Notes: generated by a model not told the origin, from the sequence alone. 64,000 nt of DNA from Escherichia coli (GCF_003334255.1 NZ_QOWU01000001.1), one strand, 5' to 3'. Positions 17,083-20,449 are shown, counted from the first letter of the stretch. Numbers and translations are program-made.

Positions 17083-17089
17083 TCCCCTT

Positions 17090-17117
17090 GCCCGGTCAAA
17101 TGACCGGGCTTTCCGCT
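17090..17117 (+). terminator. leu operon terminator-like hairpin between convergent leuD and setA
   Basis: GCCCGGTCA AA TGACCGGGC followed by TTTCCGCT; weak U-tract. Confidence 0.5.
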
Positions 17118-17130
17118 ATCGTCCACGTCA

Positions 17131-18309
17131 TCAAACGTCTTTAACCTTTGCGGTTAAAAATAATGCGACAACAGAAATAACCGCAATTACCCAGTAGACA
17201 GCAAAGTGCCCCCAACTTTGTGCAATTGCTCCCTGAATAACGCCAGCCAGAATTACCCCGGTAGAAATACTGTTAGTAAATAAGGTGGTAGCTGCCCCCG
17301 CTCTTCCAGGCATTAAATCCTGAAACCATAGCATCCCAATACCCGCAACAATGCCGATAAATACAGCGTTAAAAAGTTGCAGCGTCATCAACGCCATACG
17401 GCTATTAAAGAAAATCAATCCGGTGTAAAACAGTACTCCTGCCGCCACTGCTATGACCATCATTCGCCGCTTACCATAACGTTTGACATAGTAGCCAGCC
17501 AGAATCATTGCTGGTATTTCCAGTCCAGCTGCCGTCCCCATCAGGAAACCCGCCAGTTTGTCTGGCAATCCTAACTCGCTACTGATCCACAACGGCATAT
17601 CAATAATGTACATGGTGTTGCAGGTCCACATTAACGTCGAGGCGACAAATAACATCCGTACGTTACTATCCTGCCAGCCACCTTGCATTGATAAAGCATT
17701 TTCCGACGGCAGTTCTACCCGCGCCACAGACGGAAGCATAAATGCAATCAATACCAGACTGAGTGTGAATATCCCGGCGGCAATCGAAAACATCACCGTA
17801 AAGCCGTAATTCAACGCCAGCATAAAGGCCAACGGTGGACCGATAACCCATGCCAGAGAAAGCTGCGCACGCATCACCGAGCTAAACATCACCACTTCTC
17901 GCGCCGAGTTATCCGCATATTCCCGCGCCAGAGCAAATAACTGTGGCATTGCCGTATTGGCCAGAGATGCCAGAAGCACACCACAGGTGATAAGCGTCAG
18001 ATAATGACGATTAAATGCAAACAATAGCGCATTGCCGATAGCCATCAAACAGCAAAATATAATCAGTTTTCGCCGATCGCCCTGACTGTCAGAACGTTTT
18101 GCCAACCAGAGGCTTACGCCGATCCCAGCAATAGCATTCACCGTATAAAAGAGGCCGATCCAGAAAGGTTGCGCGCCAACCTCACGACTCAGAAATAAGC
18201 TCAATGTAGGAGCCTGTAGCGCCCCGGCCACCCCCATCATAAAAGCGACCAGCATAAATGCCGCGTAAACACCGTTCATACGGCGAGCCATCGTCATTAT
18301 CCAGATCAT
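17131..18309 (-). CDS. setA: Sugar efflux MFS transporter SetA
   Basis: ORF track 392 aa MIWIMTMARRMNGVYAAF..., multi-TM MFS; immediately downstream of sgrS. Confidence 0.95.
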   Translation of the reverse strand: MIWIMTMARRMNGVYAAFMLVAFMMGVAGALQAPTLSLFLSREVGAQPFWIGLFYTVNAIAGIGVSLWLAKRSDSQGDRRKLIIFCCLMAIGNALLFAFNRHYLTLITCGVLLASLANTAMPQLFALAREYADNSAREVVMFSSVMRAQLSLAWVIGPPLAFMLALNYGFTVMFSIAAGIFTLSLVLIAFMLPSVARVELPSENALSMQGGWQDSNVRMLFVASTLMWTCNTMYIIDMPLWISSELGLPDKLAGFLMGTAAGLEIPAMILAGYYVKRYGKRRMMVIAVAAGVLFYTGLIFFNSRMALMTLQLFNAVFIGIVAGIGMLWFQDLMPGRAGAATTLFTNSISTGVILAGVIQGAIAQSWGHFAVYWVIAVISVVALFLTAKVKDV

Positions 18310-18336
18310 ACGTTCCCTTTTTAGCGCGGCGAGAAT

Positions 18337-18563
18337 AAAAAAAACCAGCAGGTATAATCTGCTGGCGGGTGATTTTACACCAATACTCAGTCACACATGA
18401 TGCAGGCAAGTCAACTTTCAGAATTGCGGTCATCCCACTGCATCAGTCCTTCAAGCATGGTTAATCGTTGTGGGACGCTTAACCAACGCAACCAGCACAA
18501 CTTCGCTGTCGCGGTAAAATAGTGCTGATAAAACTGACGCATGGGGCACCCCCTTGCTTCATC
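18337..18563 (-). ncRNA. sgrS: Glucose-phosphate stress small RNA SgrS (dual-function)
   Basis: Minus strand reads GATGAAGCAAGGGGGTGCCCCATGCGTCAG... from 18563 and ends in the hairpin CCAGCAGG...CCTGCTGG plus T8 (plus-strand A8 at 18337-18344); 227 nt; divergent from sgrR. Confidence 0.9.
18411..18542 (-). CDS. sgrT: Small protein SgrT encoded within SgrS
   Basis: The last 43 codons of ORF-track ORF 18411..18710 read MRQFYQHYFTATAKLCWLRWLSVPQRLTMLEGLMQWDDRNSES; ATG at 18540-18542. Confidence 0.85.
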   Translation of the reverse strand: MRQFYQHYFTATAKLCWLRWLSVPQRLTMLEGLMQWDDRNSES

Positions 18564-18630
18564 GTTAGGAATTATTGACTTAATATAGGGAAAATAAAAT
18601 TGCTGTCTTTTGCACAGGAGTTCCCCTTTT

Positions 18631-20286
18631 ATGCCATCTGCTCGTCTGCAACAACAGTTCATCCGCCTGTGGCAATGCTGCGAGGGTAAATCGCAGGACA
18701 CAACGCTCAACGAACTGGCAGCGTTATTGAGCTGCTCGCGTCGTCATATGCGCACCCTGCTCAACACCATGCAGGATCGCGGCTGGCTGACGTGGGAAGC
18801 GGAAGTCGGGCGCGGTAAACGCTCGCGTCTGACATTCCTCTATACCGGGCTGGCGCTTCAGCAACAGCGGGCGGAAGACCTGCTGGAGCAGGATCGTATC
18901 GATCAACTGGTGCAGTTGGTTGGCGACAAAGCGACTGTGCGGCAAATGCTGGTTTCTCATCTGGGCCGCAGCTTCCGCCAGGGGCGGCACATCCTGCGCG
19001 TGCTCTACTATCGTCCGTTGCGTAATCTGCTACCTGGCAGCGCATTGCGCCGTTCCGAAACCCATATCGCCCGGCAAATCTTCAGTTCGCTAACGCGCAT
19101 AAATGAGGAAAATGGGGAACTGGAAGCAGACATCGCCCACCACTGGCAGCAAATTTCACCGCTTCACTGGCGTTTCTTTTTGCGTCCAGGAGTCCATTTT
19201 CACCATGGTCGTGAACTGGAAATGGACGATGTGATCGCCTCTTTAAAACGAATCAATACGCTGCCGCTCTATTCGCATATTGCTGACATTGTGTCGCCGA
19301 CGCCCTGGACGCTGGATATCCATCTCACGCAACCGGACCGCTGGTTACCGTTACTGCTGGGGCAAGTTCCGGCGATGATCCTGCCGCGCGAATGGGAAAC
19401 CCTCAGTAACTTTGCCAGCCATCCCATCGGCACCGGTCCGTATGCGGTGATTCGCAACAGCACCAATCAACTGAAAATTCAGGCATTCGATGACTTCTTC
19501 GGTTACCGGGCATTAATCGACGAAGTTAACGTCTGGGTTCTGCCGGAAATTGCCGACGAGCCAGCCGGAGGGCTGATGCTAAAAGGTCCACAGGGCGAGG
19601 AAAAAGAGATTGAAAGCCGCCTGGAGGAAGGTTGCTACTATTTACTGTTCGACAGCCGCACCCATCGCGGGGCGAATCAGCAAGTCAGGGACTGGGTAAG
19701 CTATGTGCTTTCTCCAACTAATCTGGTCTATTTCGCTGAGGAACAGTACCAGCAACTGTGGTTCCCGGCTTATGGACTGCTCCCCCGTTGGCACCATGCC
19801 CGCACCATAAAGAGCGAAAAACCGGCTGGCCTGGAAAGCCTCACCCTAACCTTTTATCAGGATCACAGTGAGCATCGGGTGATTGCCGGGATCATGCAGC
19901 AGATTCTGGCAAGTCACCAGGTCACGCTGAAAATCAAAGAGATCGACTACGATCAGTGGCATACAGGAGAGATCGAAAGTGATATCTGGCTAAACAGCGC
20001 CAACTTTACCCTGCCGCTGGACTTCTCTGTTTTCGCACATTTATGCGAAGTGCCACTGCTACAACATTGCATTCCCATTGACTGGCAAGCCGACGCTGCT
20101 CGCTGGCGCAATGGCGAGATGAATCTGGCGAACTGGTGCCAGCAACTGGTCGCCAGCAAAGCGATGGTGCCATTATTGCACCACTGGCTGATCATTCAGG
20201 GGCAACGCAGTATGCGCGGCCTGCGCATGAATACCCTCGGCTGGTTCGATTTTAAATCAGCGTGGTTTGCGCCACCGGATCCATGA
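18631..20286 (+). CDS. sgrR: Transcriptional activator SgrR
   Basis: ORF track ORF begins at TTG 18610; canonical ATG at 18631 ([15 protein letters not shown], 551 aa); N-terminal wHTH plus solute-binding-like C domain. Confidence 0.94.
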
Positions 20287-20317
20287 TTGCTGGTTGATAA
20301 CAAAATCACTACACTAA

Positions 20318-20414
20318 CGCCGTTCTCAACGGGGTGCCACGCGTACGCGTGCGCTGAGAAAATACCCGTCGAACCTGATCCGGATAACGCCGGCGAAGGG
20401 ATTTGAGGCTCCTT
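20318..20414 (+). promoter_or_regulatory. TPP riboswitch (thi-box) in the thiB leader
   Basis: GGGGTGCC (20331-20338) ... CTGAGA ... ACCC ... AACCTGATC ... GGATAACGCCGGCGAAGGGA: the conserved thi-box elements in the correct order, about 40 nt upstream of the thiB start. Confidence 0.85.
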
Positions 20415-20449
20415 CTCAAGTCCTTTGCCACTCTTTTTTGAGGTGCAAA

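Follow-up and report, generated by a model that had tools for sequence, protein, structure and literature searches.

The sgrS locus in the stretch of Escherichia coli DNA analysed here (64,000 nucleotides, hereafter the window; GCF_003334255.1, NZ_QOWU01000001.1) is, judged by its sequence, the ordinary K-12 sugar-phosphate-stress module. It is a textbook arrangement, base-for-base identical to that of K-12, and is for this reason already explained. Positions 17100-20300 of the window match E. coli K-12 MG1655, C600, J53 and many other strains at all 3201 bases (100% identity), and the RefSeq gene order is leuD, setA, sgrT, sgrR, TPP riboswitch, thiB. Set against SgrS/SgrT of MG1655, the locus shows no difference: the 227-nt length of the RNA, the sgrT peptide, the seed, the U8 run and the gaps of 27 bp and 67 bp are all the same. 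A reading made beforehand from the bare DNA (the sequence-only reading) had described the module as known biology that is intact throughout, and this is borne out by the identity to MG1655 and by the RefSeq annotation of sgrT, setA and sgrR. For annotation purposes, the window can be labelled as K-12-type E. coli DNA with an intact, well-understood stress module.

The small RNA SgrS occupies 18337..18563 on the minus strand (227 nt, +1 at 18563). It matches Rfam family RF00534 (228.8 bits; gathering score 37; E 4e-65), untruncated over model positions 1-232 of 232, and these are the coordinates that the sequence-only reading had assigned to it. Its fold as a whole has a z-score of -3.4. The covariance model E-value, the full-length identity to K-12 and the fold z-scores together rule out a chance origin. 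On the same strand, setA (17131..18309) encodes an MFS sugar efflux transporter of 392 aa, identified by its ORF, its translation, 100% RefSeq identity and a match to NCBIfam TIGR00899 (602.6 bits, cut-off 522.3, residues 17-391); its score of 446.7 against the SetB equivalog is under the cut-off of 693, as expected of a paralogue. Divergently oriented from sgrS is sgrR (18631..20286, plus strand), which encodes the 551-aa transcriptional activator of sgrS, as indicated by the ORF list, RefSeq and the NCBIfam equivalog NF010149 (1126.8 bits, cut-off 476, residues 1-550). A TPP riboswitch (RF00059, 65.9 bits, 20320-20419, plus strand) lies between sgrR and thiB and corresponds to the known thiBPQ leader (sroA region). 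In O157:H7, sgrR and the riboswitch are separated by an inserted T3SS effector gene, espY2.

The glucose-phosphate-stress module of E. coli K-12 almost certainly explains the locus, and no sequence contradicting this model was found there. SgrR is known to induce SgrS under glucose-phosphate stress, and SgrS to repress ptsG and manXYZ, activate yigL and encode SgrT, which inhibits PtsG activity (PMC4021124). In the proposed mechanism, accumulating sugar phosphates would cause SgrR to bind the conserved 67-bp control region and activate the divergent sgrS promoter. Most transcripts would then be stopped at the hairpin-U8 terminator, giving the 227-nt Hfq-binding sRNA SgrS, whose conserved 3′ seed (nt 167-188) would base-pair with ptsG mRNA at its ribosome-binding site, as well as with further targets, such that synthesis of the glucose transporter stops. 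SgrS would also serve as the mRNA for the 43-aa SgrT, an inhibitor of PtsG activity, the translation of which would be damped in K-12 by a 5′ hairpin over the sgrT ribosome-binding site. Some polymerases would pass the terminator and produce a bicistronic sgrS-setA RNA with an internal U-run; this RNA would yield no functional sRNA and would instead be translated into the efflux transporter SetA, starting from an ATG 27 nt past the U-run. The element identities, their coordinates and conservation, the coding selection on sgrT and the seed-ptsG complementarity come from the present analysis. The literature supplies the dependence on SgrR, the binding of Hfq, co-transcription, the function of SgrT and the enhancement of termination by stress; the SgrR binding site is credited by later papers to Vanderpool and Gottesman (2007).

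The seed (SgrS nt 167-188; 18376..18397, minus strand) is located in an unstructured stretch between the sgrT stop codon and the terminator and is predicted to pair with positions -29..-8 of the MG1655 ptsG leader. Computed on the single-stranded 36-nt SgrS stretch, the duplex covers the AGGAG ribosome-binding site and has an energy of -27.8 kcal/mol, which was equalled by 3 of 2000 shuffles. The 21-nt seed core occurs once in the window, with 0 occurrences expected. Pairing of the whole SgrS with the ptsG leader (RNAduplex) was discarded as meaningless and replaced by the 36-nt stretch, as it returned long duplexes that were no better than those of shuffled sequences.

SgrS ends, as the sequence-only reading had noted, in a hairpin followed by U8, which both the terminator scan and the fold confirm. 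The Rho-independent terminator (18337..18366, minus strand; also the Hfq-binding module according to the literature) consists of a stem of 8 pairs, G18366-CCAGCAG with CTGCTGG-U18344, around the 7-nt loop ATTATAC. The stem is closed by a G-U pair, the U8 run takes up 18344..18337, and the fold of -13.2 kcal/mol (z = -5.7) was matched by 0 of 200 shuffles. The gap between the U-run and the setA start codon (18310..18336) measures 27 nt, exactly as first read, and contains a Shine-Dalgarno-like AAGGGA at 18314..18319. In later papers, Sun and Vanderpool are said to have described a bicistronic sgrS-setA transcript in K-12 in 2011. The 27-bp distance is also stated elsewhere (PMC9765468), and the sgrS promoter, activated by SgrR, drives co-transcription of sgrS and setA, with the read-through RNA being the setA mRNA (PMC4509938; PMC9765468). 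Read-through RNAs do not act as sRNAs because their U-run is internal, and Hfq binding needs a long T stretch with at least 7 U (PMC4509938). Termination at the chromosomal sgrS terminator is more efficient under stress, and a few percent of transcripts continue (PMC4509938). The SgrS terminator is only a partial block. The earlier claim that setA is probably expressed through terminator read-through thus agrees with published experiments on co-transcription; both this interpretation and the 27-bp figure were already known (Sun & Vanderpool 2011; Morita 2015; Morita 2022). What SetA transports and what part it plays in the stress response are unsettled in the literature (PMC4021124).

SgrS is a paradigm of the bacterial dual-function RNA and of the sRNA gene whose terminator chooses between an sRNA and an mRNA outcome. 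The ryhB-yhhX read-through unit is similar in the second respect, being an Hfq-binding sRNA gene with a leaky terminator, a downstream gene that is apparently co-transcribed and termination that is enhanced under the inducing stress. It differs in having another sRNA and another regulator (Fur), and co-transcription of yhhX is so far apparent rather than experimental. Spot 42/SpfP of E. coli, VcdRP of Vibrio cholerae and SR1/SR1P of Bacillus are likewise described as transcripts that both base-pair and encode a small regulatory protein. Their sequences, regulators and targets are unrelated to those of SgrS, and none of them is known as the first cistron of an operon with a transporter gene reached by terminator read-through.

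For comparison, one genome per species was scanned with the seed pattern ATGTGNNNCTGAGTANTGGTG. This returned 108 loci, made up of ~96 from Enterobacteriaceae and 12 unrelated chance matches; E. fergusonii and E. marmotae were not retrieved by the pattern. Scanned with Rfam, representatives of eleven lineages were confirmed to encode SgrS. All ~96 enterobacterial loci share an identical seed core, but it was this pattern that had served to retrieve them. Wherever a genus other than Escherichia offered sufficient flanking sequence, as did Citrobacter, Salmonella, Enterobacter, Klebsiella, Raoultella, Cedecea, Siccibacter and Trabulsiella, setA is directly downstream of sgrS on the same strand. 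As measured with a hairpin finder, the terminator is separated from the setA ATG by 24-61 nt in 87 of the 87 measurable Enterobacteriaceae loci, including the Enterobacter-type stems with spacers of 46-49 nt; a regular-expression recount covered 66 loci and missed 22 of these stems. The stem GCCAGCAG/CTGCTGGC is kept across genera. The U-run of the 66 setA-linked loci reads C-U6-C in 57 and U7 in 7, with U8 present only in K-12 and Escherichia sp. MOD1-EC7003, and CUUUUUUC is the version frequent in other genera.

SgrS of Salmonella, Citrobacter, Enterobacter and Klebsiella resembles that of K-12 in its divergence from sgrR, its sgrT-like ORF, its identical seed core and its GCCAGCAG/CTGCTGGC terminator with setA 24-61 nt downstream. 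It differs in encoding an SgrT of 40-60 aa with other ends, in lacking the K-12 5′ hairpin and in a U-run that is mostly U6. Extra sequence is also found between seed and terminator. Such insertions, ranging from 12 to ~290 nt, were seen in Salmonella (12 nt), Klebsiella, Raoultella, Pluralibacter and some Citrobacter, reaching ~126-290 nt in Klebsiella, Raoultella and some Citrobacter. None was found between the terminator and setA among the measured loci. This asymmetry fits a unit in which setA is reachable solely through the terminator. The published model is strengthened and not changed by these comparative data, which comprise the 24-61-nt spacing, the evidence of coding selection in sgrT and the almost invariant control region.

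The inserts of 60-290 nt between seed and terminator in Klebsiella, Raoultella, Pluralibacter and some Citrobacter carry short inverted repeats at their flanks (tatactc…gagtata). The Pluralibacter insert presumably resembles the ERIC repeat primers. The extra Klebsiella sequence was described as "of unknown role" in a 2009 paper. Between setA and leuD, Rfam "sok antitoxin" elements (hok/sok-type module) are present in Enterobacter cloacae (L007, 8293-8441) and Siccibacter colletis (L023, 6760-6911), and they account for the longer setA-leuD distance in these two species.

The divergent control region (18564..18630) spans the 67 bp between the SgrS +1 and the sgrR ATG at 18631 on the plus strand. 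Nearly every position is at least 90% conserved among 81 distinct sequences from 86 loci, and the literature likewise describes the region important for sgrS activation as highly conserved. Read on the sgrS strand, the consensus begins after CAT with AAAAGGGGAACTCC…AAAA.tCAGCAATTT..T.aTcCctATATTA.GcCAATAaT…… and runs into GATGAA. The near-invariant box AAAAGGGGAACTCC (18617..18630; -67..-54 on the sgrS strand) overlaps the Shine-Dalgarno sequence of sgrR and, from its position beside the sgrR ATG and its conservation, is the best candidate for the SgrR operator. The hexamer AATAAT at 18571..18576 (minus strand, positions -13..-8) is the probable -10 element of sgrS on the same two grounds, and it is preferred because it fits the SgrS +1. 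The -35 region is poor (TTTTAT), which fits an activator-dependent promoter. The promoter-like site that the promoter scan returned at 18609..18582 (minus strand) was rejected as the sgrS promoter since transcription from it would begin ~12 nt ahead of the 5′ end given by mapping and by Rfam. A transcription start for sgrR was not found in a literature search that included papers on transcription start sites and evolution; part of its promoter could reach into the opening bases of sgrS. Two elements of the model are our own inference, namely which bases exactly form the operator and where the sgrR promoter lies. The sequence-only reading had stated that both promoters and the SgrR operator must be accommodated in the 67-bp spacer; the length and the conservation stand, while "must" is too strong for what is a plausible deduction. 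When the spacer was compared with the alaC promoter, the other SgrR-activated one, the best motif pair (TAAAAGGGGAACTC versus TAAATGAGGAACTC, 12/14) was within the range of shuffled controls. A direct repeat, TTGC-N6-TTGC, is present in the spacer at 18600-18613.

The sgrT coding sequence (18411..18542, minus strand) consists of 43 codons and a stop and is contained within SgrS. Its ATG at 18542 and its stop codon ending at 18411 verify the 43-codon ORF read earlier from the sequence. The 43-residue peptide, MRQFYQHYFTATAKLCWLRWLSVPQRLTMLEGLMQWDDRNSES, is identical to RefSeq WP_001248770.1 ("glucose uptake inhibitor SgrT"), and an NCBIfam search with it returned 0 families. SgrT-like ORFs are present in 78 of 86 loci, and the 43-aa ORF aligns with 75 other distinct SgrT-like ORFs sharing the core F-x-x-YF-x-AT…WL…L-x-x-LMQW. 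A 35-codon core taken from 71 distinct sequences gives a pN/pS of 0.33 when read as sgrT and of 1.13 and 1.14 in the other two frames, and diversity is 0.377 at the third codon position versus 0.228 and 0.204 at positions 1 and 2. The pattern shows purifying selection on the sgrT frame across genera. Codon conservation against other enterics had been proposed as a check on SgrT, and the ORF passes it with the in-frame value of 0.33. The dual function claimed for sgrS/sgrT is likewise upheld, as both functions have been demonstrated in K-12 for a gene of identical sequence and the codon test supports coding selection on sgrT. A second ORF overlaps sgrT, with its ATG at SgrS nt 2-4 (window 18482-18562, minus strand); its K-12 version has 27 aa (MKQGGAPCVSFISTILPRQRSCAGCVG), and lengths of up to 63 aa are reached in other genera. 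It was rejected as coding on a pN/pS of ~1.13 in both alternative frames, and the alternative frames are interrupted by a stop in the core in 71 of 71 sequences in one case and 21 of 71 in the other.

Directly 5′ of the sgrT ATG is a K-12-specific inverted repeat, GGGGGUGCCCC (18543..18553, minus strand; SgrS nt 11-21), which overlaps the sgrT ribosome-binding site. Its local fold of -10.2 kcal/mol is unexceptional (z = -1.7, with 15 of 200 shuffles as good). Inhibition of sgrT translation by the K-12 5′ hairpin has been shown genetically (PMC2760806), which implies that K-12 makes little SgrT. Given this poor translation from the K-12 allele, the physiological weight of SgrT in this strain is uncertain.

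Several natural disruptions of sgrT were observed in relatives. In O157:H7 (L002 ~4205, ATCC 43888) the start codon is ATT rather than ATG, as published, and HS-02 (L003 4073-4203) has a 1-base deletion in sgrT that RefSeq labels "frameshifted"; both have GGAGG before the sgrT start in place of the hairpin-forming GGGGG of K-12. A short SgrS without sgrT was found in six lineages: 'Escherichia' sp. ESNIH1, Phytobacter massiliensis, Enterobacter sp. ENT03, LSJC7, Enterobacter sp. kpr-6 and Yokenella regensburgei. In these six, the sgrR ATG and the end of the seed lie 117-157 nt apart, versus ~253-275 nt elsewhere, and the two that were scanned are still recognised by Rfam with 51-60 bits. They are similar to the truncated Yersinia SgrS described in 2009.

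Poor translation and natural losses could mean that K-12 sgrT is effectively a relic, with an intact ORF that contributes little and an RNA that acts through base pairing. Base-pairing-deficient K-12 SgrS fails to rescue growth (PMC4021124; PMC2760806), and the ATT start of O157:H7, the HS-02 frameshift and the six sgrT-less lineages point in the same direction. We consider this improbable, because the ORF is intact at this locus, pN/pS is 0.33 in frame over the 71 distinct sequences versus ~1.13 elsewhere, and ectopically expressed SgrT rescues growth and blocks glucose uptake (PMC4021124; PMC2760806). A dual-function SgrS with coding selection on sgrT is the reading that we retain. For setA, the corresponding alternative is that the gene is mainly expressed from a promoter of its own, located either towards the 3′ end of sgrS or within the 27-bp spacer, with read-through being incidental. 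Deletion of the terminator raises setA-lacZ expression from a constitutive promoter just 1.6-1.8-fold (PMC9765468), a gain so small that a basal setA signal independent of termination efficiency is conceivable. A 27-bp spacer, however, cannot fit a sigma-70 promoter and a leader, and the 24-61-nt spacing holds at all 87 measured loci. The promoter scan returned no minus-strand promoter-like site between 18310 and 18563, its sole minus-strand match being upstream of sgrS. Published Northern blots show the sgrS-setA read-through RNA with both probes, and induction of setA is SgrR-dependent in the literature. We therefore give a separate setA promoter hardly any credence and keep read-through of the terminator as the route to setA.

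A further possibility, complementary to the main model, is that the 67-bp spacer also holds an NtrC-dependent sigma-54 promoter serving sgrST-setA and sgrR under nitrogen limitation. Genomic SELEX in 2021 placed a peak of RpoN holoenzyme and NtrC at the sgrR/sgrS spacer, and RT-qPCR showed sgrS and setA to be up 8-11-fold on nitrogen depletion, a response lost in rpoN and ntrC mutants; the same paper reports induction of sgrR by nitrogen limitation (PMC8743547). The spacer itself argues the other way, as it has no recognisable TGGCAC-N5-TTGCW element and its only match (18610..18625) has 3 mismatches, with 297 matches found in the whole window versus 351 expected in shuffles. Such an additional promoter seems unlikely on balance.

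The linkage of sgrS to setA varies within Escherichia. Of 5426 complete E. coli genomes, 3241 carry setA and ~40% lack it, which was weighed as a point against the model. In 2158 genomes (O157:H7, 042, HS-02 and others), homology to K-12 starts at window position 18338, within the SgrS T-run, with 90-95% identity, and in the setA-less genomes sgrS directly abuts leuD. A divergent block extends from SgrS nt ~136, in the last sgrT codons, to the 3′ end of leuD (window 17083-18430); K-12 and O157 are 63-74% identical in this block versus 96-99% in its flanks. Along sgrS itself, the first 135 nt are 95.6% identical between the two, whereas identity is 63% from nt 136 to the seed and 74% from the seed to the T-run. 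The O157-type block and junction are common to E. albertii, E. whittamii and Escherichia sp. E1V33, with 95-97% identity. SgrS of the O157:H7/CFT073 type, of E. albertii and of E. whittamii resembles K-12 SgrS in lying between sgrR and leuD, in its identical 21-nt seed core and in its full-length Rfam match. It differs in having no setA, in that K-12 homology ends at the terminator T-run, in a U6 rather than a U8 run, in an SgrT C-terminus ending …MQWEGSHSDY and in a GGAGG sgrT ribosome-binding site instead of the K-12 hairpin. An earlier comparison gave 88% identity between SgrS of K-12 and of CFT073/O157, included setA in its synteny figure and reported the replacement of ATG by ATT in O157 (PMC2760817). 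With this precedent, the setA dimorphism extends published work and is not new.

As setA is kept in all other genera, the sgrS-setA order is the ancestral arrangement of the family. A joint reading of these data would be that the terminator and the setA start have been kept as one unit across Enterobacteriaceae, forming a regulated switch between sRNA and setA mRNA, that the setA-less haplotype goes back to one ancient event ending at the U-run, and that the K-12-type block (SgrS nt ~136, setA and on to the leuD 3′ end) was separately inherited or imported. We put this forward tentatively, rating it somewhat short of an even chance. Conservation as one unit is suggested by the insertions, which reach 290 nt immediately before the terminator yet never separate it from setA, and a single ancient event by the junction that ~40% of E. 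coli share with E. albertii, E. whittamii and Escherichia sp. E1V33. If this reading is true, natural "sRNA-only" and "sRNA plus transporter" alleles would coexist within one species. The dimorphism within E. coli could serve as a natural experiment on the contribution of SetA.
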